A stretch of DNA of 64,000 bases, taken from positions 13,054 to 77,053 of the forward strand of contig CAYLUV010000001.1 in the NCBI GenBank assembly GCA_964386955.1, written 5' to 3'. The translations under genes were made by a program, and so were the position numbers. Below are positions 36,789 through 57,436 of this stretch, one piece after another. This DNA comes from an uncultured Lachnospiraceae bacterium (lineage in GTDB: Bacteria; Bacillota; Clostridia; Lachnospirales; Lachnospiraceae). Under the pieces are notes generated by a model. That model saw nothing but the letters and a program-made list of their open reading frames with translations. It ran no database searches and was not told the origin of the DNA. Position 1 is the first letter of the stretch. Each line of letters begins with the position of its first letter.

Positions 36789-36927
36789 AAATTGAACAGA
36801 TAATCCAAAAGTGTTCTGTTTTTTTGTCCTTTTTTTTTCTAGAATGAAATTGACATATCAATAGCAAATAATAGTTTGCGGGTAAGTATGTGAATAAAAC
36901 GTGATATGAAAAAAGGAGGATAAAGTT

Positions 36928-37178: not shown

Positions 37179-38468
37179 ATGGTACATAACGTAAAACTTG
37201 GGAAAAATATGAGAAGTGTCTCCATTGTAGGAATCGGTGCAACTCCATTTTTTAATGGTGTAGAAAACAAAACCTATAAAGGATTAACAAATGGTGAACT
37301 TTTTGGTTATGCGTCGTTGGATGCCATGAAAGATGCAGGAATGGAACCTCGTGATGTGCAGTATTTCTTTCATGGGTCTGCTAACCCATATGTGTTAAAT
37401 AAAAGTATTACACCAAATTTACAGGTGGCTGATTGGTTTGGTATGAGAGGAAAAGGTTCTATTTCTCACTCAGAAGGCTGCTGTACAGGATATATTGCGT
37501 TGGAAGAGGCAGTATTTGCAGTTGCGAGTGGAGCATATGATATTGTGTTGACAGGCTGTAGTGAGCAGGGAACAGGTATGCCTGATGGTAACACACCAGC
37601 GCACATGCGTGTACCATTAACAACAGATATTTTGTTCCCAGATCTTGATTCTATCTTTGACCGTTCTTATGGAAGATTTCTTGGTGGTGGACCAGGCATG
37701 AATCATGATGATTGGATTAATTATTATGCAAAAGAAAACGGACTTACACCAGAGCAGATTGACGAAGTATTGGCACATCAGGCATATCATTTCAGACGTG
37801 CTGCAACGCTTTGCCCTCGAGCAATTAGAAGAACACCATATGAGCAGTTGGCAAAGGAAGCTGGTTATGACAATGTATGGGATTATATGAAATCTCCACA
37901 CAATCCTAAAATGACACAGTATTTAAGAACATCAAGTGATTCCTGCGTGGCAGATGGTGCTGCTGCTTGTATTGTTGTGCCTACAGAGATTGCAAAACAG
38001 TTTACAGATAAACCTATAGAAGTTTTAGCGATTGGATCTTCTGTATTGGATGCGATTGTTCCTCATTTAGAGAAAAAAGCAACAGCAGAAGCGGCACGTC
38101 AGGTATTTGAAATGACAGGTTTAACTGCAGATGATATGGATTTATTATACGTAAATGACTTTATTGGTTCTTCCGCTTTCCTCGCAGCAGAAGAAATTGG
38201 TTATCTTCCAAAGGGTGAAGGATGGAAATATGTATTAGATGGAAGAATTGCTTACGATGGAGATAAACCAATGAACACAAATGGAGGAAGAACATCGTAT
38301 GGTCATGCGTTTGCTGCATCCGGTATGGCAGATATTTTTGAAGCTGTTACACAGATGAGAGGAGAAGCAGGAGAACGTCAGATTAAGAAACTTCCAAAAT
38401 ACACTTTTATCCGTGGCTTTGGTGGAGCACAGAATGTGCGTGCGATTATTTTGAAATCAAATTTTTAA
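37179..38468 (+). CDS. SCP-x/nsLTP-type thiolase-like protein (DUF35-partner thiolase)
   Basis: Thiolase fold with Cys in SEGCCTGYIALEEAV and a C-terminal block NTNGGRTSYGHAFAASGMADIFEAVTQMRGEAGERQ, typical of SCP2-type thiolases. SD GGGAG is 7 nt before ATG 37179; an alternative ATG is at 37209. Confidence 0.85.
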   Translation: MVHNVKLGKNMRSVSIVGIGATPFFNGVENKTYKGLTNGELFGYASLDAMKDAGMEPRDVQYFFHGSANPYVLNKSITPNLQVADWFGMRGKGSISHSEGCCTGYIALEEAVFAVASGAYDIVLTGCSEQGTGMPDGNTPAHMRVPLTTDILFPDLDSIFDRSYGRFLGGGPGMNHDDWINYYAKENGLTPEQIDEVLAHQAYHFRRAATLCPRAIRRTPYEQLAKEAGYDNVWDYMKSPHNPKMTQYLRTSSDSCVADGAAACIVVPTEIAKQFTDKPIEVLAIGSSVLDAIVPHLEKKATAEAARQVFEMTGLTADDMDLLYVNDFIGSSAFLAAEEIGYLPKGEGWKYVLDGRIAYDGDKPMNTNGGRTSYGHAFAASGMADIFEAVTQMRGEAGERQIKKLPKYTFIRGFGGAQNVRAIILKSNF

Positions 38469-38494
38469 TGAAAGAATAGATAAGAGGTATTAGT

Positions 38495-38647
38495 ATGAGT
38501 GCTGAAAAGATAAAAGCAGAAGAATTTTGGAATCCAGAACATATTGTCGAGACATTTTGGAACGGATTAAAAGAAGGAGTTATCTACGCAAGAAAGTGCG
38601 AAGTATGGTCATGCGTTTGCTGCATCCGGTATGGCAGATATTTTTGA
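38495..38647 (+). pseudogene. Chimeric 50-codon ORF: DUF35 N-terminal 36 codons fused out of frame into duplicated thiolase 3' sequence
   Basis: ATG 38495 carries the same SD as the intact gene. The translation is MSAEKIKAEEFWNPEHIVETFWNGLKEGVIYARKCE then VWSCVCCIRYGRYF, with stop at 38645-38647. Confidence 0.8.
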
Positions 38648-38774
38648 AGCTGTTACACAGATGAGAGGAGAAGCAGGAGAACGTCAGATTAAGAAACTTC
38701 CAAAATACACTTTTATCCGTGGCTTTGGTGGAGCACAGAATGTGCGTGCGATTATTTTGAAATCAAATTTTTAA
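38603..38774 (+). pseudogene. Duplicated 3' fragment of the thiolase-like gene (last 56 codons + stop), without start or promoter
   Basis: Identical to 38297-38468. There is no in-frame upstream continuation. Confidence 0.85.
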
Positions 38775-38800
38775 TGAAAGAATAGATAAGAGGTATTAGT

Positions 38801-39238
38801 ATGAGTGCTGAAAAGATAAAAGCAGAAGAATTTTGGAATCCAGAACATATTGTCGAGACATTTTGGAACGGATTAAAAGAAGGAGTTATCTACGCAAGAA
38901 AGTGCGAAGAATGCGGTGAAATTGAATTTCCACCTCATATCGCATGCAATAATTGTGGCTATCATGAAACAAAGTGGACGACATTAACCGGTAAAGGACA
39001 GTTGAATACATTTGTATTTACTGGTGTAACCAATGCTAGATTAGAATTAGAAGAACGTGGACTTAAGTATGTCTGTGGAGAAGTTCAGTTGGATGAAGGT
39101 CCTGCTATTAATGCAGTTATTCTTGGCATTAATAAAAAGAAGGGGCGTGAAATTGAGCATAAACTTCCTTTGAGAGTGCGTCCAGTTTTTTATGATATGG
39201 GTAGATATACTACACTATTTTTTGAATTAGACGAGTAA
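38801..39238 (+). CDS. DUF35 protein (Zn-ribbon + OB-fold), thiolase partner
   Basis: Rubredoxin-like ribbon CEECGEIEFPPHIACNNCG, followed by an OB-fold region (GKGQLNTFVFTGV...CGEVQLDEGP). It is immediately downstream of the thiolase, as in archaeal thiolase/DUF35 and BbsAB-type pairs. Confidence 0.85.
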   Translation: MSAEKIKAEEFWNPEHIVETFWNGLKEGVIYARKCEECGEIEFPPHIACNNCGYHETKWTTLTGKGQLNTFVFTGVTNARLELEERGLKYVCGEVQLDEGPAINAVILGINKKKGREIEHKLPLRVRPVFYDMGRYTTLFFELDE

Positions 39239-39266: not shown

Positions 39267-40271
39267 GTGAAGGTTTTAGAGCAAATTTATAGCAAAGCAA
39301 AAGAAAATCCGCAAAAAATCGCATTTCCAGAAGCAACAAATGAGAAGATGATGCAAGCTGCATATGAAACTGGAAAAGAAGGATATATCATACCGATTTT
39401 AGTTGGCGAAGCGGAAGAATTAAAAAAACTTGCACAGGATAGAGGATATGATTTATCTGTGTTCACTTTTGTCGATATCAATGAGGAAGAGTATAAAAAT
39501 CATCTTATTGCAGAATATGTAAAACAGCCAGATACAATGCTAAAAGAAAAAGCATTGGGCAGACGTATGCAAAATCCATTATATTATGCAATGGTAATGC
39601 AAAAAGTTGGTGAAGCAGATGTTACCTTTGCGGGGATTGATAATACAACAGGAGATGTTCTTTTAGCCGGACAGATGATCATTGGAATGAAGCCAGGAAT
39701 CAGCACAGTATCAAGTATTGGACTTGCAGACATTCCAGGTTATGAGGGAAGCGAAGGAACACTGTTGGCGATAGGAGACAGCGCTGTTTGTACAAATCCA
39801 AATGAGGAACAGCTTGCAAGTATTGCAATTTCTGCTTGTGATACAGTCCAGGAACTTCTAGGTTGGGAACCAAGATGTGCCATGGTTAGTTATTCTACAC
39901 TTGGAAGTGGTCAAGGTGAACTGATTGACAAAGTAAAAGCAGCCTTAAAAATTGCAAATGAACTTCGTCCAGACTTGGAGATTGATGGCGAGTTTCAGCT
40001 GGATGCAGCGATTGTACCTGAGGTTGCAGCTAAAAAAGTACAACGTGAGAGTCGCGTGGCAGGTAAAGCAAATGTACTTATTTGGCCAGATTTGAATGTT
40101 GGAAATACTGCGGTAAAACTGATCCAACAGTTTGGACATGCAGATGTATACGGTCCAATGCTGCAGGGCTTCAATAGTATTGTTTGCGATTGTTCCAGGG
40201 GAGCCCCAGTTTCAGAAATAAAGGGAAATATCGTAATTTCTGCTGCTCGTGCAGCAGGAAGCAAAAAATAA
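39267..40271 (+). CDS. Phosphate acyltransferase (PTA_PTB family; Pta-like, substrate unknown)
   Basis: A 334-aa protein with a Pta-like N-terminus (IAFPEATNEKMMQAAYETGKEGYIIPILVGEAEEL) and C-terminal blocks (YSTLGSGQGE; ANVLIWPDLNVGNTAVKL). GTG start follows SD TGGAGGA. Confidence 0.85.
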   Translation: MKVLEQIYSKAKENPQKIAFPEATNEKMMQAAYETGKEGYIIPILVGEAEELKKLAQDRGYDLSVFTFVDINEEEYKNHLIAEYVKQPDTMLKEKALGRRMQNPLYYAMVMQKVGEADVTFAGIDNTTGDVLLAGQMIIGMKPGISTVSSIGLADIPGYEGSEGTLLAIGDSAVCTNPNEEQLASIAISACDTVQELLGWEPRCAMVSYSTLGSGQGELIDKVKAALKIANELRPDLEIDGEFQLDAAIVPEVAAKKVQRESRVAGKANVLIWPDLNVGNTAVKLIQQFGHADVYGPMLQGFNSIVCDCSRGAPVSEIKGNIVISAARAAGSKK

Positions 40272-40292: not shown

Positions 40293-40913
40293 TTAGGTCA
40301 AAGGATATTCTATTAATTTAATTGCAGTATCACTGTATTCGTAACAGAGTGAAAGGATATGGCCTTGAGAAAGTGTTGACTGATAGCAGGCAACAGAACT
40401 GTCAGAACAAATGATATTCATGAGGTCTTTTGTTTGAGTAAAAGAAAAAGAGAAATCCTTCAAATTGGTATCAACACCTAAGCCGGATTTTTTTACATAG
40501 GCTTCCTTTAGTGTCCACAGGCGGTAGAACCACTCTTGTCTAAGCGGCAAAGTGGAGCCTGTACGCTGGAGGAAGTCTTTTTCTGTTTTGGACAAAGATT
40601 TTGTTATCAAGATTTCAGGAAAATAGCCTGGAAATTCTACATCAACACCAATGGATGCGGTGTCAAATGCACATGCTACAAGGCCATTGCAATGACTGAT
40701 ATTAAAAAATATGTCTAAATGTTCAGCCAAAAAGGGTTTTCCGTTGGAATCTTTTTTCAAAGCAGAATCAAGTTCTTTAAGAGAAAGTTCGATACCATAG
40801 ATATCTTTCAGTCCATGCAGAAGAAGTTCTCTGCCCAAGATATGTTCTTGATTACTGATAGATGATATGGTTGAGTCAACAGATGTATAATAAGTATAGT
40901 AAATAACTGGCAT
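40293..40913 (-). CDS. Sfp-type 4'-phosphopantetheinyl transferase
   Basis: Sfp-family motifs: KDSNGKPFL, FNISHCNGLVACAF, IGVDVE, FYRLWTLKEAYVKKSGLG. Confidence 0.85.
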   Translation of the reverse strand: MPVIYYTYYTSVDSTISSISNQEHILGRELLLHGLKDIYGIELSLKELDSALKKDSNGKPFLAEHLDIFFNISHCNGLVACAFDTASIGVDVEFPGYFPEILITKSLSKTEKDFLQRTGSTLPLRQEWFYRLWTLKEAYVKKSGLGVDTNLKDFSFSFTQTKDLMNIICSDSSVACYQSTLSQGHILSLCYEYSDTAIKLIEYPLT

Positions 40914-41007: not shown

Positions 41008-41811
41008 ATGTACTTGGAGAGAGAAGATGTTCGTTTATATTATGAAGTACATGGCGAAGGTGAACCGCTGTTACTTATTCATGGCGTGATAGTGGATTCT
41101 GATTTGTACCGACAAACAGCAAAATATTTGTCAAAATATTATCAAGTTATCACCTACGATAGAAGAGGAAATTCAAGAAGCACTTGTGAAAGAAAGTCAA
41201 AGTTCCACATAAAAGAGCAGACGGAAGACATATTGAATCTTATGGATGCTCTAGGGATAGACAAAATAAATATTGTCGGAAGTAGCGCTGGGGCAGTCAT
41301 TGGTCAGTATTTTCTTCAGGAATATCCGGATAGAGTTCGTCATCTGATTATGTATGAACCAGGTATGTTGGGACTTATGATGAATATAAGCGAGGAGTTT
41401 CGAGTATGGGTTGCCGAGATGGAAAAAATAATCAATAAAGGAAAATATAATATGGCACTACTCAAGTTTGCAGAACATATCGGCACATCAGATCCACGAA
41501 GCCCACAGAAGGAAGAGTCAGTATCCTTGCGTGAGATGGAAAATATAGAATACGCATTTAAGGTGGAAATACCAGGTTTAATTGCGTATCAACCAGATAT
41601 TGATCGGATGAAATTAGTTGCTGAAAAGATTACCATTGCTGCAGGCGAAAAGAGTGGTGATACAATGTATGTACAAATGTCCGCTTCATTAGCAAAACAG
41701 ATAGGGAAAGAAAATATCTTCTATCCAGGTGGCCACAATCTGCCTTATGATCTGCCGAAAGAGTTTGCAGTATGTGTTTTAGGCACGCTGATGCTTCAAG
41801 ATGAATGCTAA
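41008..41811 (+). CDS. Alpha/beta-fold hydrolase (possible thioesterase/esterase)
   Basis: HG oxyanion motif (LLLIHGVIVD), nucleophile elbow VGSSAGA and C-terminal GGHNLPYD. Confidence 0.8.
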   Translation: MYLEREDVRLYYEVHGEGEPLLLIHGVIVDSDLYRQTAKYLSKYYQVITYDRRGNSRSTCERKSKFHIKEQTEDILNLMDALGIDKINIVGSSAGAVIGQYFLQEYPDRVRHLIMYEPGMLGLMMNISEEFRVWVAEMEKIINKGKYNMALLKFAEHIGTSDPRSPQKEESVSLREMENIEYAFKVEIPGLIAYQPDIDRMKLVAEKITIAAGEKSGDTMYVQMSASLAKQIGKENIFYPGGHNLPYDLPKEFAVCVLGTLMLQDEC

Positions 41812-41815
41812 TATG

Positions 41816-42529
41816 CTAATTTTCAAGGGTGTTGTTGTTATCTAGTTGGCAGTTATCTTTTCTGATTTTCATTTTGAGGTCAAAGTCGGGATCGCAGCGT
41901 CGTTTATAACTGAGGTAACTGCCGCCGACCCTGGTTGTATTTAACAAATTTACAATTTCGTCAATAGGTAAAAAGTCATTTTCGTTATCCTCAATCCAGA
42001 GTTGTGCAGCTAACAAGTGCATCTCTAAAAAAAGGTGCACAAAAGGGGAACGCAATTCGTCTTTTGGTCGGCCATCACAATCCATCATATGATTGATATA
42101 TTCGGTTAAAATTTGTTTTACACGCTGAATAAAATAGGAATCCCCATTTTTTCGATCCAATAAGACTCTAATAGCTTTGTGGTGTTCTTTGCAAAATTCG
42201 AACCATGTCAAAAGCATTTCTGGTGGAGCGTAATCAAATTTGTCAATAAAATGTTCCTCTGGTATAACTGCGTAGGGAGCCTGATGGATATTCATGTATC
42301 TATTTGTAAGATCATCCAATAAAGAGGTTTCTAGGGATTCTATCAAATCATAAATATCATCATAATACTGATAGAAGGTTCCTCTTGTGATTTCAGCGTA
42401 TGCACAGAGTTCTTTTACAGATATCTTATCCCACTTCTTGTTAGTCATCAAATGCAGATAGGAATCAATTATTTTCTCTTTGGTTCGTGCAGATTTGCGA
42501 ATTTTCTTAGTTGCCGTTGTTTTTGTCAT
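41816..42529 (-). CDS. TetR-family transcriptional regulator
   Basis: N-terminal TetR HTH (KIIDSYLHLMTNKKWDKISVKELCAYAEITRGTFYQYY). Confidence 0.9.
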   Translation of the reverse strand: MTKTTATKKIRKSARTKEKIIDSYLHLMTNKKWDKISVKELCAYAEITRGTFYQYYDDIYDLIESLETSLLDDLTNRYMNIHQAPYAVIPEEHFIDKFDYAPPEMLLTWFEFCKEHHKAIRVLLDRKNGDSYFIQRVKQILTEYINHMMDCDGRPKDELRSPFVHLFLEMHLLAAQLWIEDNENDFLPIDEIVNLLNTTRVGGSYLSYKRRCDPDFDLKMKIRKDNCQLDNNNTLEN

Positions 42530-42816: not shown

Positions 42817-42842
42817 AAAAAATTAAATTGAAGGAGAAAAAA

Positions 42843-43805
42843 ATGGAGAAGAAAAAAGTTGTTGGATTTTCTTTTGGAAGAAAATTAAGTAATACGGAGA
42901 TTCTCATTAAAGAAGCTCTGTTGGAATGTGAAAAAGCAGGAATGGAAATTCAATTTGTTAGATGCGATGATTTGGATATTCATATTTGTACTGGATGCTG
43001 TAGCTGTGTGGCTGGATTAGCAATGTGCACAGGCAATGGATCCTGTATACATAAAAACGATGATTTTCCAATTATTCATGAAGCGTTGATGTCTGCAGAT
43101 GCAGTTATTGTTGGTTCACCTACCTATGTTTTGGCTCCTACAGGAAACTTTAAGAAGGTGTGCGACCGCCTTGGCCCTGCTCATGACATTACTTTTATCA
43201 AACCAGCAATTGAGGCGGGAAAACGAGAAGGAAGAGCACCGGAAACATATCCGGATGAGAGATTTTTGAAGAAGAGAGTAGCGGCTTTAATTACAGTTGG
43301 AGGAGCGAGAACAGAAAACTGGTTATCACTTGCTATGCCTAATATGTTTGAATTTACTTTATCTATGGACATGTCTGTGGTTGACAAATTACAATATCCT
43401 GCGGCTATGGATTATGTCAGTGTTATCGGAAGAGAAGATGTTTTAGAAAGAGCACGTAAAGTTGGACAGAACATTGCAGAAGCGGTAGTGGCTGAAACAG
43501 AAGAAGAAAGAGTGAGATACAGAGGAGACGAAGAAGGCGTCTGCCCAGTATGTCATGAAAAAATATTGACAATCACAGGTCCAGGCACAACGGTAGAGTG
43601 TCCAATTTGCGGTATTAAAGGAGAATTAGAAATCGTAGATGGAACAATTAAGGCAAAATTTTCAGAGGAAGAGATAAAACGTTCTCGTTTATTTGAAGCG
43701 GGAAAATGGGAACATTCTGATGAAATCAGAGATGGTCTTAGAACACAGAGAAAAGTGGAAAATCTTGCTGAAAAGAAGAAAAAATATATTGGCGTTGGTG
43801 AATAA
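42843..43805 (+). CDS. Flavodoxin-fold (FMN-reductase/iron-sulfur flavoprotein-like) protein with Cys cluster and C-terminal Zn-ribbon
   Basis: Isf/FMN_red-like features: VVGFSFGRK...; Cys-rich CTGCCSCVAGLAMCTGNGSC; VIVGSPTYV. C-terminal ribbon CPVCHEK...CPICG. ATG 42843 is 6 nt after AAGGAG; the ORF-track TTG is at 42828. Confidence 0.7.
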   Translation: MEKKKVVGFSFGRKLSNTEILIKEALLECEKAGMEIQFVRCDDLDIHICTGCCSCVAGLAMCTGNGSCIHKNDDFPIIHEALMSADAVIVGSPTYVLAPTGNFKKVCDRLGPAHDITFIKPAIEAGKREGRAPETYPDERFLKKRVAALITVGGARTENWLSLAMPNMFEFTLSMDMSVVDKLQYPAAMDYVSVIGREDVLERARKVGQNIAEAVVAETEEERVRYRGDEEGVCPVCHEKILTITGPGTTVECPICGIKGELEIVDGTIKAKFSEEEIKRSRLFEAGKWEHSDEIRDGLRTQRKVENLAEKKKKYIGVGE

Positions 43806-43819
43806 GAAGGGTGATGAAG

Positions 43820-45958
43820 ATGAAAGAGCAAGTGACAGTTTGGATCGACGGAAAACAGATACAAACTGAATATGGAAAACAGATGTTGGATGTGGCCTTA
43901 GAAAATGGAATCTACATACCTCATTTGTGCCATCATCCAGATCTGCCTGATATTGGCTCATGTCGCTTGTGTTTAGTACAGAAAGAAGGAAGTGATGATG
44001 TCATTCCGTCTTGTACATTAAAGGCAGAAGATGGATTAAAGATTACTACACAGAGCGAAAAAATACAGCAATATAGAAATTTGTCTATGGAATTGATTTT
44101 GGCAGCACATCCGGAAGATTGTTCTACTTGCCCTAAATATGGTAGATGTGAACTGCAAACATTAATTCAGTACATGGGTGTCTCAGCAATGCGAATGAGA
44201 ACCAGAACAAAAGGGTTTGCAAAAAATGAAAAGAATCCATTATATGTTCATGATATGACACGTTGTATATTGTGCGGTCGATGTGTGCGTGCATGCAAAG
44301 ACTTAAGAGGTGTTGGCGTTCTCCAGTATAACAGAGATGATATGGAAGTATATGTGGGGACAATTAAAGATAAGCTCTTAAAAGATAGCGATTGTCGGTT
44401 CTGCGGCGCGTGTGCAGAGGTTTGTCCGACAGGAACGATTAGAGATCTTATTAATTATACTCCGATTGAGAAAAAAGATGCCCTGGTTCCATGTCAAGCA
44501 ACATGTCCGATTCATACAGATATTCCTAGATATGTACGATTAGCAAAAGAAGGGAAATTTGATGAAGCAACGGCGGTTATCCATGAGAAATTACCATTTC
44601 CAGAGTGTTTGGGTCATGTATGCGCCCATACTTGCGAAGCGTCTTGTCGAAGAGGAGACGTAAATGAACCAATTTCTATTCGAAATATAAAACGTTATGT
44701 GGCAGAACATACAGATAATGCATTGTGGAAGAAAAATAGCAAACAGCTTCCAGCTACAGGGAAGAAGGTTTGTGTGGTAGGTGGTGGACCAGCGGGTATG
44801 ACAGCAGCATTCTATCTTGCAAAACAGGGACATGAAGTTGTTTTAAAAGAAGCAAATGCAGAATTAGGCGGTCAAATGCAGTATGGTATTCCTTCCTATC
44901 GTCTTCCTAGGGATACTGTTAAAAAAGAAGCAGCATATTTAGAAGATGTCGGTGTCAAGATAGAGAAAAACTGTCGCGTAGAAAAACCGGTAGATTTGTT
45001 AAACGAATATGATGCTGTTCTTATGGCTATTGGAACACATCAGGGTGTTCGCCTTTCCATGGAGGGAAATGATTTAGAAGGTACGTTGTTGAATGCAGAT
45101 TTCCTAAAAAATGCGTCCATGAATCAAGAAACTGGAATGGGAGAAAAAGTTGTTGTGTTAGGTGGTGGAAATGTAGCCTTTGACTGTGCAAGAACAGCAG
45201 TACGATTAGGCGCAAAAGAAGTACACCTTGCATGTCTAGAAAAGAGAGAAGCAATGTTGGCTGATGACGAGGAAATTGAACAAGCAAAAGAAGAAGGAAT
45301 TTTTATTTATCCTGGCAGAAATTTTGAAAAAATCTGTGGAGATACTTCTGTGACAGGTGTTCAGTTTAGCAAAATCAAGAGTTTTACATTTGATGAAAAT
45401 CGTCGTGCAATCATAGAAAAAGAAGATAATTCAGAGCATACAGTTGAATGTGATACAGTAATTTTTGCTGTAGGACAGAGAACTGCATTGGCTGAGGATT
45501 CTGGTTTGGAACGAGGAAGAGCAAATTCTATTGCAGTAAAAGAAAATAGCAAGGAAACAAATGTAGAAGGAATTTTTGCTTGCGGTGATGCAATCTATGG
45601 AACAAAAACAGTCATTCAGGCAGTAGCGTCAGGAAGAGAAGCGGCAACAGAGATTGACAGATATCTGGGTGGTGATGGAGACATTTCAGAAGTGCTTCTT
45701 CCAAGAGAGGAAGTGGATTCTAAGATTGGAAAAGTGGAAAACTTCGGATATCTGGAACGTGCAGAAGAACAATTTTTAGGCGCAGAGGAACGAAAAAAAG
45801 ATTTTAGACCAATTAGTGGTGGCATTTGTGATCAAGAAATTTGCAAAGAGGCAGGAAGATGTTTACAGTGTGATTTGAGATTTTCTATTACTGCACCACG
45901 AGTTTGGAGTGACTATACTGATCAGAACGAAAAGGAGGCCGCAGCAGATGTTAATTAA
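43820..45958 (+). CDS. Multi-cluster Fe-S / FAD NAD(P)H oxidoreductase: NuoG/HydA-type N-terminal domains fused to a GltD/NfnB-like module
   Basis: Motifs in order: 2Fe-2S (GSCRLCLV); His-Cys3 cluster (AHPEDCSTCPKYGRCELQ); two ferredoxin motifs (CILCGRCVRAC; CRFCGACAEVCP); GltD-type Cys motifs (CQATCP..., CAHTCEASCRRG); FAD Rossmann VCVVGGGPAGMTAA; NAD(P)H Rossmann VVVLGGGNVAFDCA. Start is ambiguous (GTG 43811, ATG 43814 or ATG 43820). Confidence 0.85.
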   Translation: MKEQVTVWIDGKQIQTEYGKQMLDVALENGIYIPHLCHHPDLPDIGSCRLCLVQKEGSDDVIPSCTLKAEDGLKITTQSEKIQQYRNLSMELILAAHPEDCSTCPKYGRCELQTLIQYMGVSAMRMRTRTKGFAKNEKNPLYVHDMTRCILCGRCVRACKDLRGVGVLQYNRDDMEVYVGTIKDKLLKDSDCRFCGACAEVCPTGTIRDLINYTPIEKKDALVPCQATCPIHTDIPRYVRLAKEGKFDEATAVIHEKLPFPECLGHVCAHTCEASCRRGDVNEPISIRNIKRYVAEHTDNALWKKNSKQLPATGKKVCVVGGGPAGMTAAFYLAKQGHEVVLKEANAELGGQMQYGIPSYRLPRDTVKKEAAYLEDVGVKIEKNCRVEKPVDLLNEYDAVLMAIGTHQGVRLSMEGNDLEGTLLNADFLKNASMNQETGMGEKVVVLGGGNVAFDCARTAVRLGAKEVHLACLEKREAMLADDEEIEQAKEEGIFIYPGRNFEKICGDTSVTGVQFSKIKSFTFDENRRAIIEKEDNSEHTVECDTVIFAVGQRTALAEDSGLERGRANSIAVKENSKETNVEGIFACGDAIYGTKTVIQAVASGREAATEIDRYLGGDGDISEVLLPREEVDSKIGKVENFGYLERAEEQFLGAEERKKDFRPISGGICDQEICKEAGRCLQCDLRFSITAPRVWSDYTDQNEKEAAADVN

Positions 45959-48728
45959 AAATGAAAATGCTTTGCAGATTGTGGACAACTTATCGCCTGA
46001 ACAGATTTATGAGTACATTAAGAATGTTCAAAATTATGGCAGTTACAAAGAATCATTGGCAGAGCTGATGAAAGAAAATCCACAGAAGAATCTTGTAGTC
46101 GCTTTGAATAACGATGATTTTGATGCCGTAGCCAACATACTTTTAGAGAAAAATCCAGAAGCAATTGTTGCTGGTATGAAGGCAGTAACGAAAGCACTAG
46201 AAATCAAGCAGCTTGTATGTGTAGTCAGAGATGAAAAATATGTAGATGAGTTACAAGATATTGCCAAGAAATATGGATTAAATCTGGACGTTGAAGTAGC
46301 TGATATTGTGGATATTAGAAAATATAAAGATAGCATGATGCTTCATATAGAAACTATGGCAGCCTATAGTGATGTGTTAATGGGCCAGACTCCAGGCGTA
46401 CTCTTGGCTGTTGACGACAGTGAACCGGTGGAAGTTCCATTTGGTACAAAATTATCGGAACTGTTAGGCGAAGAGGCAAAGGCATATAAAGTCAACCACG
46501 AATACTATGGCAGCGAATTTTATGAAAGTAGTGTGCAGGAAGGCGCAGCGTACGGAAGCGGAAGAATTTGTAAGATTTCTGATAAGCAATGTATGGTGTG
46601 CAATTGTCTAGAAGAGATTCATCACTTTAGAGAACAAACTTGTGGAAAATGTACATTTTGTCGAGAAGGATCCTATCAGTTGGAAGCAATTCTTCGAGAT
46701 ATTACAACAGGAAAAGCATCTAGTGAAGATACAAAGCTGATACAGGAACTTGGTGAGGCGATGCAGTCCTTAAACAATTGTTCTTTAGGTTGTGCAGCGG
46801 CTAAACCGGTAATCAGCATTCTCAATAATTTTGGTGAAGAAGTAGAAGAACATTTACAGAAGCATTATTGTAGATCAGAGCAATGTAAGGCGTTTATTAT
46901 GTACTACGTCGATTCTGCAAAATGTAAGGGATGTGGAACATGCCAGAAATCATGTCAGGTAAATTGTATTGATATGAAAAAAGGATACACAGCAGTGATT
47001 GATGAATTTGATTGTGAAAAATGTGGCGCATGTATGGAAGCTTGCCCGAATGGAGCTATAAAGAAAGCAAATGGAAGTAAGCAAAAGATCAATCAGAAGG
47101 CGGTAAGATTAAAAGGCGTTGCCCTTGAAAAAACTGACGCGAAGGAGCGAAAGAAAGTATCAAGAAAAGGCAGACACAAAACCAAAATTATGCCATTTAA
47201 ACCGGCAGAAAACGTAATGACCACAAAGGAAAACTTAAATCATGTTAAGGCTGAAAGTGAAAGGGGGCAAAATATGAAGAGACTGGAAACGGATGTAGTA
47301 GTAGTTGCCGGTGGTCCTGCGGGACTAGCAGCAGCAGTTACATTGGGCGAGCACGGTATTAAGAGTATTCTGTTTGAAAAATCCAATACTACAGGTGGCG
47401 CAGCCAACATGGGTATGGGACCATTGGGTATCAACACAAAGATTCAGAAACAGAATTTCAACAATGTCAGTGTTGATGAGGCGTTGGATATGCATATGAA
47501 ATATACACATTTCCAAGTAGATGCTGATTTGGTACAGACATATTTCCACAAGAGTGCAGATACCATCGAATGGCTTGAAAGTTTAGGCGTGGAATTTGCA
47601 GGTGCATATCGCTATTTCAAGGAATCTTACGCAACATGGCATATCGTGAAACCTGACAATGGTGTAATCGGACCAAGAGCAGCAGGAAAAATGGCCAGAA
47701 TTCTGACGGAAAAAGCAAAAGAGTATGGCACAGAGATTTACTTGGAAACAGCAGCAACGGATCTGATTTATGAAAATGATAAGGTTTGTGGTGTTATTGC
47801 GAAAGATAATGATGGAAATCTGATAGAAGCAAGAGCGAAAGCGGTAGTAGTTGCGACCGGTGGTTTTGGAAATAATAAAGAGATGATTAAGGAAGAATTT
47901 GGTCTTACTCTTGGAGAAGATTATTTCCCATTCCAGATTCCGGGATTAAACGGTGATGGACTTAAAATGATGTGGAATGTGGGGGCCAAGAAATTTGGAA
48001 CTAACATCGAAGCGATTTATCAGTTACCGGACAATGCCACATGGTCAATCCTTGATGCTGTTTTAAGACAACCGAATTTGTTGATTAACCAATTTGGTGA
48101 TCGTTTTATGAACGAAGGTGACATGGGGAATACAACGCATACAGGAAATGCGATTCATATGCAGCCTGGAAATTATGCATACTGTATTATGGATGAAGGA
48201 ATTTTAAAAGAATATAAGAGAAATGGTCCAGATTTGATTGATTTGGTACATTCTCCAACTGCTGTGGATGAATTTGACGAAGTTGCGGCAAAAGCGGTAG
48301 AACAGGGATACGGAGCATATTTTGAAGCAGAATCAATCGAAGAATTAGCAGAAAAACTTGGTATTGATGAAGATAAACTTCAGGATACCATCGATGAATA
48401 CAATGAAATGTGCGAAGTTGGTGTGGATAGTAAATTCCACAAGAGTCAGAAGTTTTTACATCCAATTACAGGAAAAGGAAAATATTTGGTTGGAAAATTC
48501 TATCTTGGCGCGTATGGAACTTTGGGCGGTGTAAGAATCAATAAGTACTGTGAAGTATTGGATGAAGATTTATTGCCGATTGAAGGACTGTATAGTGCGG
48601 GTACAGATGCAAATACTATTTATGGCGACAGTTATAATTTTAATTTACCAGGCAATAGCATGGGATTTGCAGTTAATTCAGGACGTATGGCGGCAGAGGC
48701 AATTGCAGATTATCTAGATACTATGTAA
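45948..48728 (+). CDS. Fusion: degenerate NuoF/HydB-like domain with [4Fe-4S] motif + 2x[4Fe-4S] ferredoxin + FAD_binding_2 (fumarate-reductase/KstD-family) reductase
   Basis: The NuoF-like block lacks the usual Gly-rich FMN/NADH motifs (LVVALNNDDFDAVANILLEKNPEAIVAGM) but keeps CGKCTFCREG...NNCSLG. The ferredoxin motifs are CKGCGTCQKSC and CEKCGACMEACP. A Lys-rich linker follows, then FAD dinucleotide motif DVVVVAGGPAGLAAA, VVVATGGFGNN and GLYSAGTDA. ATG 45948 (SD AAAGGAGG) overlaps the upstream stop. Confidence 0.85.
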   Translation: MLIKNENALQIVDNLSPEQIYEYIKNVQNYGSYKESLAELMKENPQKNLVVALNNDDFDAVANILLEKNPEAIVAGMKAVTKALEIKQLVCVVRDEKYVDELQDIAKKYGLNLDVEVADIVDIRKYKDSMMLHIETMAAYSDVLMGQTPGVLLAVDDSEPVEVPFGTKLSELLGEEAKAYKVNHEYYGSEFYESSVQEGAAYGSGRICKISDKQCMVCNCLEEIHHFREQTCGKCTFCREGSYQLEAILRDITTGKASSEDTKLIQELGEAMQSLNNCSLGCAAAKPVISILNNFGEEVEEHLQKHYCRSEQCKAFIMYYVDSAKCKGCGTCQKSCQVNCIDMKKGYTAVIDEFDCEKCGACMEACPNGAIKKANGSKQKINQKAVRLKGVALEKTDAKERKKVSRKGRHKTKIMPFKPAENVMTTKENLNHVKAESERGQNMKRLETDVVVVAGGPAGLAAAVTLGEHGIKSILFEKSNTTGGAANMGMGPLGINTKIQKQNFNNVSVDEALDMHMKYTHFQVDADLVQTYFHKSADTIEWLESLGVEFAGAYRYFKESYATWHIVKPDNGVIGPRAAGKMARILTEKAKEYGTEIYLETAATDLIYENDKVCGVIAKDNDGNLIEARAKAVVVATGGFGNNKEMIKEEFGLTLGEDYFPFQIPGLNGDGLKMMWNVGAKKFGTNIEAIYQLPDNATWSILDAVLRQPNLLINQFGDRFMNEGDMGNTTHTGNAIHMQPGNYAYCIMDEGILKEYKRNGPDLIDLVHSPTAVDEFDEVAAKAVEQGYGAYFEAESIEELAEKLGIDEDKLQDTIDEYNEMCEVGVDSKFHKSQKFLHPITGKGKYLVGKFYLGAYGTLGGVRINKYCEVLDEDLLPIEGLYSAGTDANTIYGDSYNFNLPGNSMGFAVNSGRMAAEAIADYLDTM

Positions 48729-48754: not shown

Positions 48755-50134
48755 ATGAATAATACAAGTCAAAAGAAAAAAACACCGCTTAGTTTAGCTG
48801 TTGGATATGGTTTTGGTGAACTTGGTGGCCAGATGAGCTGGTATATGATTAATACATATCTAATGATTTTTTATACGGATGTAGTGGGCTTAACGGCATC
48901 TGCAATTTCTCTTATTATGTTGATTGCCCGTGTGTGGGATGCGATTAATGATCCTATGATGGGAATGCTGTGTGACAGAACACACACAAGATGGGGAAAA
49001 TTTAGACCTTATATTATGTTTGCGCCCCCTGTCTTAGCAATCTTTAACATATTAACTTTTACAGTTATGCCGGTTAAAGGTGTTGCAAAAGTGTTGTTGT
49101 GTTTACTTTTCTATATTGGTGCAGGTATGGCATATACAGTTGTTATGACAGCATATGCAAGTCTTGTAAATGTTGTTTCTAAAGATAGTCAGGAAAGACA
49201 AACATTGTCTGCAGCAAGAAATATGTTTAGTTCAATTGGATCTACAATTATGGGTGCGGTTGCGATGCCTCTTATTCTCTTCTTTGGTAAGAGTGAAGTA
49301 GCTACAGCAAAAGGTTATTTTTGGACAACGGTAGTATTCTCTGTAGCAATGATTCCAATCTATCTTATTACGGCTGGAACATGTAAAGAAAACTATATTG
49401 AAGAGTTACATGGTGAAAAAACGGAAGAAAAGAGAAGTATTATCGACAGCTTGAAAACCGTATTTAAAAATGATCAACTTATGATGGTTGTTTTGAATAC
49501 ATTAGGCGGTACGATTGGTGTTTTAGGAAGAATGACTATGCTTTCCTACTATGTTATCTATGTTGTAGGATCTTATACAATGATTGCTCCTATCTATACG
49601 ATTATGTCAATCGGAGCTTTTTTAGGAAGCTGTATTATTCCAAGAATGACTGCATGGTTGGGCAAGAAAAAATATGCACTCCTGTTAAATGGAGTAATGG
49701 CTGTAGGGTTTATCATTATGTATGCATTCCCTGTTAATAATGTGGCATTCTTATTAGCTATTTCATTTGTTATTGGTATTGGAAATTCATCCCAGGGTGT
49801 TGCATATGGAATGGTATCAGACAGTATTGAATATGGTGATTACAAAAATGGTGTTCGAGAAGAAGGATTATCTTGTTCCTTCTTAAGCCTTAGTGCAAAA
49901 ATTGCAACAGCTGTATGCGGATCCGTTGGAGTTCTTTTACTGGCTTCCGTTGGATATGTTCCAAATGCAGCACAGACAGAAACTGCAAAAAATGGTATTA
50001 ACTTTGTAGTTAATATTATTCCAGCAATCTGTGTAATTGCTAGTATGATTCCACTTTTCTTCTATAAACTCGAAAACAAAAAGATGGTGGAAATTGGCGC
50101 AGAACTTGAGAGAAGAAGAGTAGAAGAAAAATAG
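48755..50134 (+). CDS. GPH-family (glycoside-pentoside-hexuronide):cation symporter
   Basis: Twelve predicted TM helices and a GPH signature (ARVWDAINDPMMGMLCDRTHTRWGKFRPYIMF). Confidence 0.85.
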   Translation: MNNTSQKKKTPLSLAVGYGFGELGGQMSWYMINTYLMIFYTDVVGLTASAISLIMLIARVWDAINDPMMGMLCDRTHTRWGKFRPYIMFAPPVLAIFNILTFTVMPVKGVAKVLLCLLFYIGAGMAYTVVMTAYASLVNVVSKDSQERQTLSAARNMFSSIGSTIMGAVAMPLILFFGKSEVATAKGYFWTTVVFSVAMIPIYLITAGTCKENYIEELHGEKTEEKRSIIDSLKTVFKNDQLMMVVLNTLGGTIGVLGRMTMLSYYVIYVVGSYTMIAPIYTIMSIGAFLGSCIIPRMTAWLGKKKYALLLNGVMAVGFIIMYAFPVNNVAFLLAISFVIGIGNSSQGVAYGMVSDSIEYGDYKNGVREEGLSCSFLSLSAKIATAVCGSVGVLLLASVGYVPNAAQTETAKNGINFVVNIIPAICVIASMIPLFFYKLENKKMVEIGAELERRRVEEK

Positions 50135-50170
50135 TAATTTGTAACAAAGGAAAATGAAAGGATGAAGGGA

Positions 50171-51274
50171 ATGAAGGCATATAAAGTTTTTACAGTAAAT
50201 CCGGGATCCACATCAACCAAAATTGCATTATTTGAGGGAAGTGAAAAAGTTTTTTCTGCAAATGTCAGTCATGATGCAAAAGTACTTGCTCAATATGGTA
50301 CGATGAAGGAACAACTTGATTACAGAAAAGAAACAATTGAGAAGTTGTTAAAGGATAATGAAGTTGATTTAAATGGACTGGATGCCTGTGTCGGAAGAGG
50401 TGGCGGCCTTTTAGCAATGGAGGGTGGAACTTACGAAATAGATGATTTAGTTTTGACACATTCTCTTCATTGCGCAAATGGTGTTGTACATCCAGCTAGT
50501 TTAGGGCCAAGCATTGCCAAAGAGTTCGGAGATGCATATGGTGCAAGATCCTTTGTAGTGAATCCACCGGATGTGGATGAGCTGCAGGATGTTGCTAGAA
50601 TGACGGGAATTAAAGGTGTTTACCGTGTGATTCATTTGCATGCCCTAAATCTAAAGGAAACAGCTATTCGCCATGCAGAAAGTATTGGAAAGAAATATGA
50701 AGAATGCAACTTTATAGTATGTCATATTGGTGGTGGTATTTCTATATCCGCCCATCGCAATGGTAAAATGATAGATGGATTTGACATTGTTGGTGGAGAA
50801 GGACCGATAGCTCCTACAAGATGTGGCAGCATCTCTGTCGCAGATTTGTTAAGATATTGCGAAGGAAAAGACATAAAGAGTGTGAAGCAGCTGTGCACTA
50901 AAAATGGTGGTTTTGTGAATCATCTAGGTATTTCTGATGCAATTGAGCTGACAGAGCGTGCAGAAAAGGGAGATAAGTATGCGGAGATGCTCTGGAATAC
51001 GATGATATACCAGATTGAAAAGTGCATTGGCTCTATGGCTGCAGTGCTAAAAGGCAAGATTGATGGAATTTTACTTGGCGGTGGAATGGTTCATAGCCAA
51101 GATATGGTAAATCAGATTAAAGATGCCTGTAGTTGGATAGCACCAGTAACTGCTTACCCAGGCGAGTTTGAGATGGAAGCCATGGCATCTGGCGCTTCCA
51201 GGGTGCTTGCTGGTGAAGAAAAAGTAAAGAGATATGAAGGAGTTTGTATCTTTCAAGGATTTGACTTTGAGTAA
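50171..51274 (+). CDS. buk: Butyrate (short/branched-chain acyl) kinase
   Basis: Buk N-terminus YKVFTVNPGSTSTKIALFE, CHIGGGISISAH and ASKHA acetate/butyrate kinase blocks. ATG 50171 or 50162. Confidence 0.9.
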   Translation: MKAYKVFTVNPGSTSTKIALFEGSEKVFSANVSHDAKVLAQYGTMKEQLDYRKETIEKLLKDNEVDLNGLDACVGRGGGLLAMEGGTYEIDDLVLTHSLHCANGVVHPASLGPSIAKEFGDAYGARSFVVNPPDVDELQDVARMTGIKGVYRVIHLHALNLKETAIRHAESIGKKYEECNFIVCHIGGGISISAHRNGKMIDGFDIVGGEGPIAPTRCGSISVADLLRYCEGKDIKSVKQLCTKNGGFVNHLGISDAIELTERAEKGDKYAEMLWNTMIYQIEKCIGSMAAVLKGKIDGILLGGGMVHSQDMVNQIKDACSWIAPVTAYPGEFEMEAMASGASRVLAGEEKVKRYEGVCIFQGFDFE

Positions 51275-53415: not shown

Positions 53416-54054
53416 ATGAAATATGAAAAAACTAGAAAGATTGTTTTAGATGCAATTTTAGAAGCAGTAGATATGGGACTTATTCATGGTACTTCAGGAA
53501 ACATTGCGATGCGAGATGATGAGGAGGACGTGGTGGCAATCACACCAAGTGGAATTTCCTATAAGAATATGACAGCGGATCAGATTGCAATCGTAGATAT
53601 GGATGGAAAATGGTTAGATGGACCTTTTAAACCATCTTCAGAAGTACCGATGCATACAGCAGTTATGAGAGCGAGAAAGGATGTACGTGCTACTGTACAT
53701 ACGCATGGTATGTTTGCAACAATTGCAGCAATGAGTGGAGAACTTCTTCCAACAACACCTCCACAGGCAGAGTTTGTGCCAGTAGGTATTGTGCCATTTA
53801 CTATGCCTGGAAGTGACGAAGTGGCAGACAAGGTGGTGGAAGCACTTGGCGAAGAAGGAAGAGCAGTGCTGATAAAAAATCATGGTATGTTCTGCTGCGG
53901 AAAAGATATGAAAGCAGCTATGGCAGCAACTATTTATACGGAAGAAATGGCTCAGACAGCTTATTATGCAAAAGTAGCTGGAGTATATGAGCCAATGCCA
54001 GAAGAGGCAGTTAAAAAAATGAAAGAATTAATTGCAGCTGATCAGGCAGTGTAG
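53416..54054 (+). CDS. Class II aldolase/adducin-family protein (L-fuculose-1-P aldolase / ribulose-5-P 4-epimerase-like)
   Basis: Motifs: GTSGNIAMRD, VAITPSGISY, SSEVPMHTAVM, TVHTHGMFAT, LIKNHGMFCCG. Confidence 0.88.
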   Translation: MKYEKTRKIVLDAILEAVDMGLIHGTSGNIAMRDDEEDVVAITPSGISYKNMTADQIAIVDMDGKWLDGPFKPSSEVPMHTAVMRARKDVRATVHTHGMFATIAAMSGELLPTTPPQAEFVPVGIVPFTMPGSDEVADKVVEALGEEGRAVLIKNHGMFCCGKDMKAAMAATIYTEEMAQTAYYAKVAGVYEPMPEEAVKKMKELIAADQAV

Positions 54055-54066
54055 GAGGCAGTTACG

Positions 54067-56359: not shown

Positions 56360-56370
56360 GAGATGGCAAA

Positions 56371-57423: not shown

Positions 57424-57436
57424 GGAAGGTGTAAGT

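Follow-up and report, generated by a model that had tools for sequence, protein, structure and literature searches.

A three-gene cluster that most likely encodes an iron-sulfur-wired flavonoid-reducing and -opening system of gut Clostridia

Among dietary polyphenols, flavonoids are the main class, and which metabolites reach the host depends on how they are broken down in the colon. The bacterial route accepted as of 2026, known from Flavonifractor plautii, Eubacterium ramulus, and Clostridium butyricum, relies on the flavone reductase FLR, the flavanone- and flavanonol-cleaving reductase Fcr (an OYE-type enzyme), CHI, and the phloretin hydrolase Phy; C. butyricum carries the FLR, Fcr, and Phy genes one after another (PMC11868195). 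FLR is not NAD(P)H-dependent, and a 2026 review of the route states that its physiological donor is unknown and lists ‘electron delivery to FLR’ among the unknowns of the route (PMC13515148). Here we analyze a 64,000-nucleotide stretch of an uncultured Lachnospiraceae bacterium (assembly GCA_964386955.1, contig CAYLUV010000001.1, positions 13,054–77,053; hereafter the window) and focus on three adjacent genes, g1, g2, and g3, at window positions 42843–48728. Most likely, they encode a previously undescribed iron-sulfur-wired flavonoid-reducing and -opening system of gut Clostridia.

Two further groups of described enzymes resemble parts of this cluster. The first comprises the Bfu-type complexes—the NfnABC and StnABC transhydrogenases and the HydABC hydrogenases (PDB 9bov/9bp5, 9n5u, 8oh5, 8a6t, and 7p5h)—whose output is NAD+/ferredoxin or an H-cluster, whereas here it would be a fused or adjacent FAD_binding_2 reductase; a survey of the Bfu family makes no mention of fumarate-reductase-type partners. 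The second comprises the flavoproteins Fcc3, UrdA, VprA, HcrB, and Ber, which share their two-domain fold with the C-terminal domain of g3 and reduce a C=C or benzylic C–O bond beside a carbonyl or p-hydroxyphenyl group. These relatives are fed via haems, an FMN_bind domain, or an OYE domain, whereas the flavin of g3 would receive its electrons via an iron-sulfur (Fe-S) chain. An earlier note on this DNA, written from its letters, had allowed for the three-gene architecture being already on record; in open-access papers and on bioRxiv we found no description of it, nor of an Fe-S/FAD_binding_2 flavanone/chalcone reductase or of a thiolytic dihydrochalcone cleavage.

All three genes lie on the + strand: g1 at 42843–43805 (ATG, 320 residues; an alternative TTG at 42828 would give 325), g2 at 43820–45958 (ATG, 712 residues; 715 from a GTG at 43811), and g3 at 45948–48728 (ATG, 926 residues). 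The tight packing described in the earlier note recurs in the list of open reading frames (ORFs), with 5 (GTG) or 14 (ATG) nucleotides separating g1 from g2 and an 11-nucleotide overlap of the g3 start with the g2 stop (45948–45958). Homologs agree with these starts: residue 5 of g1 aligns with residue 2 of FLR, residue 5 of g2 with residue 4 of 9bov_A, and M1 of g3 is invariant among 20 homologs. Pfam, NCBIfam, and PDB comparisons also reproduced the domain strings previously given for all three proteins.

The first protein had been taken for a generic cysteine-rich protein of the flavodoxin fold; instead, it proved to be an FLR homolog. Pfam recognizes FMN_red only, and the protein is built from a WrbA/flavodoxin-like FMN domain, a CxxCxxC..C motif, a four-cysteine ribbon, and a C-terminal tail. 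Its only PDB match, 7d38_A (E 6e-37; residues 5–314 versus FLR 2–292, i.e., full length), is the flavone reductase of F. plautii (PMC7862272), and the homology includes the C-terminal tail that sets FLR apart from WrbA and whose importance is described in the same paper. While g1 is just 28% identical to this protein, so is, at 29.7%, the genetically validated FLR of C. ljungdahlii. We aligned 25 FLR-family sequences (the crystallized F. plautii FLR, g1 of the window, and genes from 23 related loci) and found H271 and I275, which contact the substrate, as well as W149, G146, and V144, which contact FMN, in 25 of 25. K282 is present in g1 and variable across the family; T279, M10, S14, N15, E91, and K92 differ. 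By homology, g1 is a putative FLR-type flavone reductase predicted to reduce the C2=C3 bond.

The same alignment revealed that the CxxCxxC motif (FLR C46/C49/C52) and the four-cysteine ribbon (C216/C219/C233/C236) are kept in all 25 sequences, with the fourth cysteine (FLR C64) falling into an aligned column in 16 and sitting one residue off in g1 of the window. The CxxCxxC..C motif is similar to the compact [4Fe-4S] site known from iron-sulfur flavoproteins (Isf), and it may be the entry point for physiological electrons. Neither cysteines nor zinc nor an Fe-S cluster of FLR is mentioned in the paper on that protein.

The second protein joins a NuoG-type N-terminus ([2Fe-2S], His/Cys3 [4Fe-4S], 2x[4Fe-4S]) to a C-terminal GltD-type module with 2x[4Fe-4S], FAD, and an NAD(P)H site. 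Pfam accordingly reports Fer2_4, NADH-G_4Fe-4S_3, two Fer4, Fer4_20, and Pyr_redox_2, as well as Fer4_Nqo3, the GltD/NfnA-type NAD(P)H module, with its NAD(P)H-binding Rossmann motif, being represented by PF14691 (E 2e-19) and PF07992 (E 2e-33); the match to NCBIfam PRK12771 (428 bits) stays below its cut-off of 516. In a PDB search, the best structural relatives of g2 were the A subunits of Bfu-type transhydrogenases: 9bov_A (E 3.5e-131; g2 residues 220–685 aligned with 99–567), which is subunit A of the same complex as 9bp5, titled Nfn-ABC of Caldicellulosiruptor saccharolyticus; NfnA of Thermococcus sibiricus (9n5u_A, E 4e-110); and 8oh5_C, a subunit of the Sporomusa ovata StnABC complex (E 1e-105). 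With NfnA and StnA, g2 shares the full set of modules—[2Fe-2S], His-ligated [4Fe-4S], two ferredoxin clusters, and the GltD-type FAD/NAD(P)H module with its two [4Fe-4S]—yet their order is permuted and the C-terminal molybdopterin-like domain is missing. Judged by these shared modules, g2 and the N-terminus of g3 look like a cut-down NfnA/NfnB pair without NfnC.

Residues 1–190 of g3 (45948–46517, +) form a NuoF/HydB-like domain of the Rossmann type. Pfam detects it by a Complex1_51K match below cut-off (residues 62–117, E 8e-4), and a single-sequence PDB search aligned only residues 192–373 to HydB-type proteins (8a6t_B residues 449–629, E 5e-36). A profile of 12 sequences reaches weakly into the FMN domain of Thermotoga maritima HydB, and there the GLRGRGGGGFPTGLKWE of HydB faces a non-glycine (glycine-poor) stretch of g3 and its CNGDEGDPGAF faces aLNNsDtDgal. 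Both glycine-rich FMN/NADH loops are therefore replaced, as the earlier note had claimed, and the protein is not an ordinary HydB-type subunit with intact FMN/NADH sites. An AlphaFold2 model gave pLDDT values of 80–94 for residues 1–390, and Foldseek aligned about 456 columns of it with BfuB-type subunits (HydB, NfnB, StnB, and the B subunit of tungsten aldehyde oxidoreductase). From the profile and the model together it follows that the fold of the NuoF-like domain is kept while its cofactor and substrate loops are gone; residues 1–190 are probably a docking scaffold.

Residues 192–373 (46521–47066, +) carry an N3-type [4Fe-4S] and a 2x[4Fe-4S] ferredoxin domain, recognized by the HydB match, by Pfam (NADH_4Fe-4S, residues 225–302, E 2e-21; two Fer4, residues 319–372), and by the cysteines: in a 20-sequence family alignment the N3-type ligands C232, C235, C238, and C278 are all invariant, as are most ferredoxin cysteines. 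Residues 1–373 thus have the fold, the N3-type cluster, and the C-terminal 2x[4Fe-4S] domain of NfnB/HydB, and g2 has the NuoG-type N-terminal cluster domain of a Bfu A subunit. Unlike a Bfu B subunit, however, g3 lacks not only the intact FMN/NADH motifs but also the N-terminal [2Fe-2S] domain, and Pfam scans of the region found no thioredoxin-like [2Fe-2S] domain that would indicate a NuoE/HydC-like subunit. The FMN-less remnant is not peculiar to g3. Searching with its residues 1–386 returned stand-alone proteins of 395–440 residues with the same architecture, whereas true HydB/NuoF proteins match only the C-terminal 55–62% of this segment. A Lys/Arg-rich linker follows (residues 391–440; 47118–47267, +; pLDDT <50, predicted disordered); 30 of 65 related loci have a gene boundary at this point instead. 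The idea of a wire from NAD(P)H through Fe-S clusters to FAD, put forward in the earlier note, is borne out to the extent that g2 matches NfnA/StnA and the g3 N-terminus matches NfnB/HydB/StnB.

At the end of this putative wire stands the catalytic FAD_binding_2 reductase domain (residues 445–926; 47280–48728, +), assigned from Pfam, NCBIfam, fold matches, and gene context. It matches PF00890 (E 2e-51, residues 449–896) with both the fold and the N-terminal dinucleotide-binding motif; the motif YGDSYNFNLPGNSMG is present, with most positions invariant in the 20-sequence alignment. Foldseek places it with 1d4c, 6t85, and 4c3x (E 1e-25 to 1e-30), which corresponds to the fold of Fcc3, UrdA, and KstD. 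No other part of g3 is as well conserved: the substrate (clamp) domain is complete, and many residues outside the FAD site are invariant.

The canonical catalytic residues of fumarate and urocanate reductases are not retained. Aligned to 1d4d, QAHPT corresponds to EAIYQ, EAVRGNG to DAVLRQP, HHTMGG to AYGTLGG, and GANRLGGNA to GDSYNFNLPGNSM, so that g3 has YNFxLPGNSMG where the fumarate-reductase type has RLGGN. The catalytic and carboxylate-binding residues of Fcc3 (H365, R402, H504, and R545), situated within the HPT, AVRG, HHTMGG, and RLGGN motifs, are all replaced—the loss that the earlier note had seen at the C-terminal motif—and R707 of g3 is not invariant in the family. Residues of another kind at the catalytic His/Arg positions fit a substrate that is not a dicarboxylate. 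The best NCBIfam match of the domain is the vinyl phenol reductase VprA (NF053717; full length, E 2e-94), at 317.4 bits against a cut-off of 600. As no equivalog cut-off was reached, the domain is not assigned to an enzyme of known substrate, and no substrate can be read from it directly.

We therefore turn to its relatives. A protein search found about 100 clusters of full-length g3-like fusions (50–74% identity) in Clostridium, Lachnospiraceae, and many metagenome-assembled genomes (MAGs), named only ‘FAD-binding protein’ or similar; the nearest named relative, at 74% g3 identity, belongs to a Mordavella MAG. A scan of one genome per species gave 567 confirmed relatives of the FAD domain, of which the best 80 loci (referred to by L numbers) were fetched. 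In 61 of the 80, g2 and the NuoF-remnant gene occur together, with g2 directly upstream and mostly 0–120 nucleotides away. In 35 loci a single ORF holds both the NuoF remnant and the FAD domain; in 30 they are encoded by two neighboring ORFs. We checked the split form in L022 and L035; in L022 the tblastn high-scoring segment pair reads through a stop codon, and the split call is right. The fusion that the earlier note considered unusual is thus real, although it is one of two common arrangements. Two Oscillibacter loci have the FAD gene followed by a g2-like gene without any NuoF remnant. Considering the fused, split, NuoF-less, and FMN_bind forms (see below) together, we conclude that the FAD catalytic domain is combined with several electron-input modules.

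The FMN_bind forms come from Streptococcus and Lactobacillaceae, where the FAD domain (56–63% identical) is fused to an N-terminal FMN_bind domain and has neither an Fe-S module nor a signal peptide (L073, 7728–9500; L074, 7611–9353; also L077, L079, and L080). In two Streptococcus loci, this gene stands beside a PucR-type regulator and the full cassette of acyl carrier protein (ACP), thiolase-like protein, DUF35 protein, phosphotransacylase (Pta), and butyrate-kinase-family enzyme (Buk) that is described below for the window.

Gene content around the 80 loci repeatedly points to flavonoids. An FLR-like gene is present in 34 of them. A phloretin-hydrolase-like gene of the PhlG/DAPG-hydrolase family was found in 15 by ORF clustering and in 23 by tblastn, and a representative of it matches PF18089 (E 2e-74) and, as best PDB hit, phloretin hydrolase 5xe5. 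The typical operon with Phy reads TetR/LysR, FLR (g1), g2, g3, DUF1097, Phy; carriers of the Phy gene include Clostridium hydrogenum, Butyricicoccus pullicaecorum, Sharpea azabuensis, a Blautia isolate, and Faecalibacterium, Gemmiger, and Mediterraneibacter genomes. A C-glycoside deglycosidase beta subunit (CGDB, PF19906) with a TIM-barrel partner lies beside the reductase genes in five to six loci and GFO/IDH/MocA oxidoreductase genes in five, which suggests a tie to flavonoid C-glucoside catabolism. Altogether, 45 of the 80 loci hold at least one flavonoid marker (FLR, Phy, or deglycosidase) or the thiolase cassette. For the substrate, which the earlier note had called not obvious, context across the 80 loci points to flavonoids.

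Two side observations concern the edges of this distribution. The PF19906 genes adjoin the most divergent g3 homologs (39–42% identity; L005, L067, L069, L071, and L075; examples are L069, 9096–9488, and L075, 2927–3982). A large further clade (L022–L026, L041–L053, and L076), mostly Lachnospiraceae MAGs with split g2/NuoF-remnant/FAD loci, has no FLR, Phy, Dgp, or thiolase marker within 8 kb; part of its loci repeatedly have genes for glycyl radical enzymes resembling pyruvate formate-lyase and for regulators of the Rrf2 or LysR type.

In the Phy-type operons, g2 and g3 stand between FLR and Phy, that is, where Fcr stands in C. butyricum, and tblastn found no OYE-type gene in the operon at any of the 23 Phy loci. 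Both systems would lead from flavone via flavanone and dihydrochalcone to phloroglucinol plus arylpropionate, and they share an FLR homolog and, in related loci, the Phy-like hydrolase as operon partner. The middle reductase differs, being g2 plus a FAD_binding_2 protein rather than an OYE-type Fcr/ERED enzyme: Pfam finds no PF00724, the Oxidored_FMN TIM barrel that Fcr/ERED proteins combine with [4Fe-4S] and Pyr_redox_2, in g2 or g3. We propose that g2 and g3 work like Fcr and claim no membership in its family. Since one single reduction separates the FLR product (flavanone) from the Phy substrate (dihydrochalcone), we infer that the FAD domain of g3, powered by g2, would carry out this step. 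By analogy, this chemistry is reasonable. The benzyl ether reductase Ber of Eggerthella lenta is a fumarate-reductase homolog (10.1101/357640) and sets a precedent for cleavage of p-hydroxybenzyl ethers by this fold, a 2026 review describes flavanone ring opening as benzyl-ether cleavage, and HcrB of Lactobacillus reduces hydroxycinnamates with the same fold (HcrA and HcrB using FMN_red-family, COG0431, partners); by profile, the domain is nearest to the vinyl phenol reductase VprA. That the g1-g2-g3 cluster acts in flavonoid catabolism we regard as likely. With less assurance, though still inclining toward it, we read the cluster as a flavonoid-reducing system with a Bfu/Nfn-derived electron input that specifically converts flavanone or chalcone to dihydrochalcone.

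A second departure from the known route is that the window holds no Phy, DUF1097, or Dgp homolog and instead contains the ACP/thiolase/DUF35/Pta/Buk cassette. Its first gene encodes a 79-residue ACP (36928–37167, +; NCBIfam 47 bits, below cut-offs); tblastn with the PP-binding ORFs of L073, L019, and L036 matched 36913–37164 (E 5e-16), and these homologs match Pfam PP-binding. Next come an SCP-x/DUF35-associated thiolase-like protein of 429 residues (37179–38468, +; NCBIfam ‘thiolase domain-containing protein’), a DUF35 OB-fold/Zn-ribbon partner of 145 residues (38801–39238, +; PDB 9myr_B, 6esq_E, and the DUF35 of ChsH2; weakly NCBIfam BbsA), and a Pta-family phosphotransacylase of 334 residues (39267–40271, +; NCBIfam phosphotransacetylase at 276 bits, below the cut-off of 310). 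A 206-residue 4'-phosphopantetheinyl transferase of the Sfp type (40293–40913, −; NCBIfam AusB, HetI, and AcpT models, all below cut-off) presumably activates the ACP. The acyl kinase of the butyrate-kinase family (370 residues; 50162–51274, +; NCBIfam butyrate kinase at 408 bits, above cut-off) is the last gene of the g1-g2-g3 operon.

The thiolase-like gene recurs next to reductase homologs, as do Pta, DUF35, and Buk genes in its company; 13 loci have parts of the cassette next to the reductase genes, among them those of Streptococcus caprae and S. orisasini, where the reductase has the FMN_bind form. Among the 80 loci, Phy and the thiolase cassette never overlap (hypergeometric P = 0.008, without phylogenetic correction), and in a rough neighbor-joining tree Phy-linked and cassette-linked loci interleave within the FAD-domain clade of the window. 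The PDB relatives of the thiolase-like protein include archaeal thiolases, BbsB, and PhlC (5m3k_C, E 8e-22); in its family Cys101/102 and His376 are invariant, and NDF stands where SCP2-type thiolases have HDCF. PhlABC itself transfers acyl groups away from acyl-phloroglucinols. PhlABC (thiolase-like PhlC, DUF35 protein PhlB), BbsAB, and the archaeal thiolase-HMGCS-DUF35 complex likewise pair a thiolase-like protein with a Cys at the nucleophile position and a DUF35 partner, as the cassette does. Unlike PhlABC, the cassette has no third, KAS III/HMGCS-like subunit PhlA, and its thiolase-like/DUF35 pair comes with genes for an ACP, a phosphotransacylase, and an acyl kinase. By analogy, we predict that the thiolase-like protein is a C–C-cleaving acyltransferase acting on an acyl-phloroglucinol, the dihydrochalcone. 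We tried reading it as specifically PhlC-like and dropped this, as archaeal and SCP2-type thiolases score better; the analogy applies at family level only.

Several features of the cassette region deserve record. In loci of Streptococcus, Oscillibacter, and Oscillospiraceae, a homologous ACP gene separates DUF35 from Pta, and the pairing of an ACP with Pta- and butyrate-kinase-family enzymes is unusual for substrate-level phosphorylation. A perfect 300-nucleotide tandem duplication (38297–38596 and 38603–38902; 100% identity, spacing 306 nucleotides) reaches from the 3′ end of the thiolase-like gene across the intergenic region to about codon 36 of the DUF35 gene, leaving both genes intact; it accounts for the 333-nucleotide thiolase–DUF35 gap, absent in the Mordavella relative L001, and could be a recent event or an assembly artefact. 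The gene at 35228–36703, directly upstream of the ACP gene, encodes a corrinoid reductive activase of the RACo/AcsV kind (2Fe-2S and ASKHA ATPase); neither a corrinoid protein nor a methyltransferase was seen beside it, and it may have to do with O-demethylation of methoxylated aromatics. An alpha/beta-hydrolase (41008–41811), located between the cassette and the regulator gene described next, matches NCBIfam 3-oxoadipate enol-lactonase and meta-cleavage C–C hydrolases (BphD, HsaD) weakly.

The operon itself is flanked by a divergent TetR-family regulator gene (41816–42529, −; weak Pfam TetR_N and TetR_C_8), found at the same position in 14 related loci. As the earlier note had it, a GPH transporter comes straight after g3: this GPH-family (MFS_2) cation symporter (48755–50134, +; TIGR00792 at 364 bits, above cut-off) starts 26 nucleotides downstream, also adjoins homologs in L001, L003, and L036, and possibly imports flavonoid glycosides or glucuronides. 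Given the 26–27-nucleotide spacing of the symporter and butyrate-kinase genes, the transcription unit probably comprises five genes, g1-g2-g3-GPH-Buk. A promoter/terminator scan of the operon found sites no more often than in shuffled sequence.

An OYE-type Fe-S flavoenzyme of 673 residues is encoded farther downstream, at 57386–59407; its best NCBIfam matches, BaiCD (466 bits) and long-form bilirubin reductase, are both below cut-off, and it is 33% identical to OYE genes beside FAD-reductase homologs in L077 and L059. It belongs to a separate cluster, its neighbors (53416–57423) being genes for a class II aldolase-like protein, an Fe-alcohol dehydrogenase, an MFS transporter, and a 2-hydroxyacid dehydrogenase.

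Taken together, these assignments suggest the following pathway. By homology, g1 would reduce the C2=C3 bond of a flavone or flavonol to give the flavanone or flavanonol. NAD(P)H would pass a hydride to the GltD-type FAD of g2, as in the NfnABC and StnABC structures, from where single electrons would move through the two GltD-type [4Fe-4S] to the NuoG-type clusters. In g3, the NuoF/HydB-like domain would serve only to dock on g2 and to hold the N3-type [4Fe-4S], which together with the two ferredoxin-domain clusters would relay electrons to the C-terminal FAD; the whole wire, from the FAD of g2 to that of g3 and on to the substrate, would count about nine Fe-S clusters. Going by gene context, the FAD_binding_2 domain would then open the flavanone C-ring reductively, or reduce the chalcone C=C, to form the dihydrochalcone—a job done elsewhere by the unrelated OYE-type Fcr. 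More speculatively, the same wire might also reduce the FMN of FLR: the tight coupling of g1 to g2 and the CxxCxxC..C motif in 25 of 25 FLR-family proteins make it a candidate donor. Finally, context suggests that in this genome the thiolase-like/DUF35 pair would cleave the dihydrochalcone onto the ACP and release phloroglucinol, whereupon the acyl group would pass to phosphate (phosphotransacylase) and then to ADP (acyl kinase), yielding 3-arylpropionate plus ATP.

A far-reaching version of this scheme, to which we give only tentative credence, has g1, g2, and g3 in one complex, with a degenerate Bfu/Nfn-derived wire feeding both the FLR FMN and the g3 FAD, a possible coupling to ferredoxin, and the cassette conserving the energy of the acyl-phloroglucinol C–C bond as ATP rather than losing it to hydrolysis. 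If true, a single machine would perform both reductions from flavone to dihydrochalcone, and gut and rumen Clostridia would widely carry, in this locus, a full module for fermenting flavonoids with conservation of energy.

Other functions of the cluster are conceivable. The FAD domain may be a hydroxycinnamate or vinylphenol reductase of the HcrB/VprA type, acting on p-coumarate, caffeate, ferulate, or vinyl derivatives, perhaps released from chalcones or esters, with g2 and the g3 N-terminus replacing the FMN_red/FMN_bind electron-input modules of lactobacilli. The full-length VprA match (E 2e-94) speaks for it, as do the 56–62% identity to FMN_bind+FAD_binding_2 proteins of Streptococcus and Lactobacillus, which have an HcrB-like architecture, and the use by HcrA and HcrB of partners from FMN_red (COG0431), the family of g1. 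We nonetheless find it unlikely: the VprA score is half the curated cut-off (317 versus 600), and beside FLR and Phy a cinnamate reductase has no obvious role, because the phloretin hydrolase product is already a saturated arylpropionate. Moreover, the FLR-g2-g3-Phy operon leaves exactly one reduction unassigned, flavanone to dihydrochalcone, and the Streptococcus FMN_bind homologs carry the thiolase/ACP cassette, which a free-acid reductase would not need.

Alternatively, as the comparison with NfnAB/HydABC in the earlier note would suggest, the proteins might form a bifurcating or confurcating enzyme that couples exergonic substrate reduction by NAD(P)H to ferredoxin reduction, or uses ferredoxin and NAD(P)H together. 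The GltD-type FAD is the bifurcating site in NfnSL, and reduction of an enone by NADH releases enough energy. The Bfu-type Nfn/Stn/Hyd scaffold from which g2 and the g3 N-terminus derive, the retained HydB-type C-terminal ferredoxin domain, and a number of clusters, about nine, that exceeds the need of a linear two-flavin wire also argue in this direction. Weighing against it, the FMN site of the NuoF-like subunit—where published models (PMC12018979) put the Bfu bifurcation centre—is lost, the operon has no NuoE/HydC-like gene, and no ferredoxin gene is linked, so we consider bifurcation decidedly unlikely.

The FAD domain could also act on some enone or enoate outside flavonoid metabolism, for instance a steroid, bile acid, coumarin, curcuminoid, or glycoside-derived acid, with the neighborhoods being general ‘polyphenol islands’. 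Its fold is that of KstD-type steroid dehydrogenases, the adjacent GPH transporter is related to glucuronide carriers, 35 of the 80 loci are without flavonoid markers, and, by our own reasoning, a beta-diketone of the tetrahydrocurcumin type would suit the thiolytic cassette too. Yet linkage at operon level is repeated in Oscillospiraceae, Lachnospiraceae, Clostridium, Erysipelotrichaceae (Sharpea), and Streptococcus and involves three different flavonoid-specific gene types (FLR, Phy, and DgpBC-like), which renders this reading improbable. Given the same FLR, Phy, and DgpBC-like neighbors, we set aside resorcinol, phloroglucinol, curcumin, aconitate, and steroids as substrates of a combined reductase and thiolytic cleavage.

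That g2 and g3 are mainly a NAD(P)H:FLR oxidoreductase, with FAD_binding_2 as an electron-transfer or regulatory flavin, is very improbable, for although FLR depends on a reductant from outside, g1 and g2 are translationally coupled (5–14 nucleotides), and the FLR-family CxxCxxC..C motif could hold a cluster, an FLR-like gene is near only 34 of 80 loci (none in Streptococcus, Lactobacillus, or many Lachnospiraceae loci), and the FAD domain is the best-conserved part of g3, has a full clamp domain and many invariant non-FAD residues, and also occurs with FMN_bind input or stand-alone.

Our proposal that the cluster reduces flavanones or chalcones to dihydrochalcones has to be set against several points. 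All functional steps beyond domain homology are read from gene neighborhood, and the 80 loci, as best tblastn matches from different yet phylogenetically related species, are not independent samples. No flavonoid marker lies within 8 kb in 35 of them, including a whole FAD-domain clade (L022–L053), so substrates may differ between clades. By profile, the closest characterized family of the FAD domain is the vinyl phenol reductase, and with HcrB-like FMN_bind fusions being 56–62% identical to the domain, a substrate of the hydroxycinnamate/vinylphenol type is conceivable. The OYE-type enzyme 8 kb downstream could be an Fcr/ERED analog and could contribute. Furthermore, g1 has 28% identity to FLR without the proposed activating residue T279, the AlphaFold2 model of g3 has a pTM of 0.49, and the thiolase-like protein is not specifically closest to PhlC.

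For flavonoid catabolism in the gut, the reading of g1-g2-g3 as a flavonoid-reducing system has several consequences. The cluster would be a candidate physiological electron source for FLR, and its g2/g3 wire may explain how a known flavone reductase gets its electrons. It would also provide a candidate second enzyme, non-homologous to the first, for the ring-opening reduction, encoded in abundant commensals such as Faecalibacterium, Gemmiger, Butyricicoccus, Mediterraneibacter, Blautia, and Flavonifractor relatives, while the cassette would be a candidate substitute for phloretin hydrolase that yields ATP. Carriers of the cluster would escape metagenomic surveys restricted to FLR, Fcr, and Phy homologs. 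For enzymology, the cluster would exemplify the scaffold of a bifurcating enzyme that, stripped of the bifurcating flavin, is reused as a plain electron wire.

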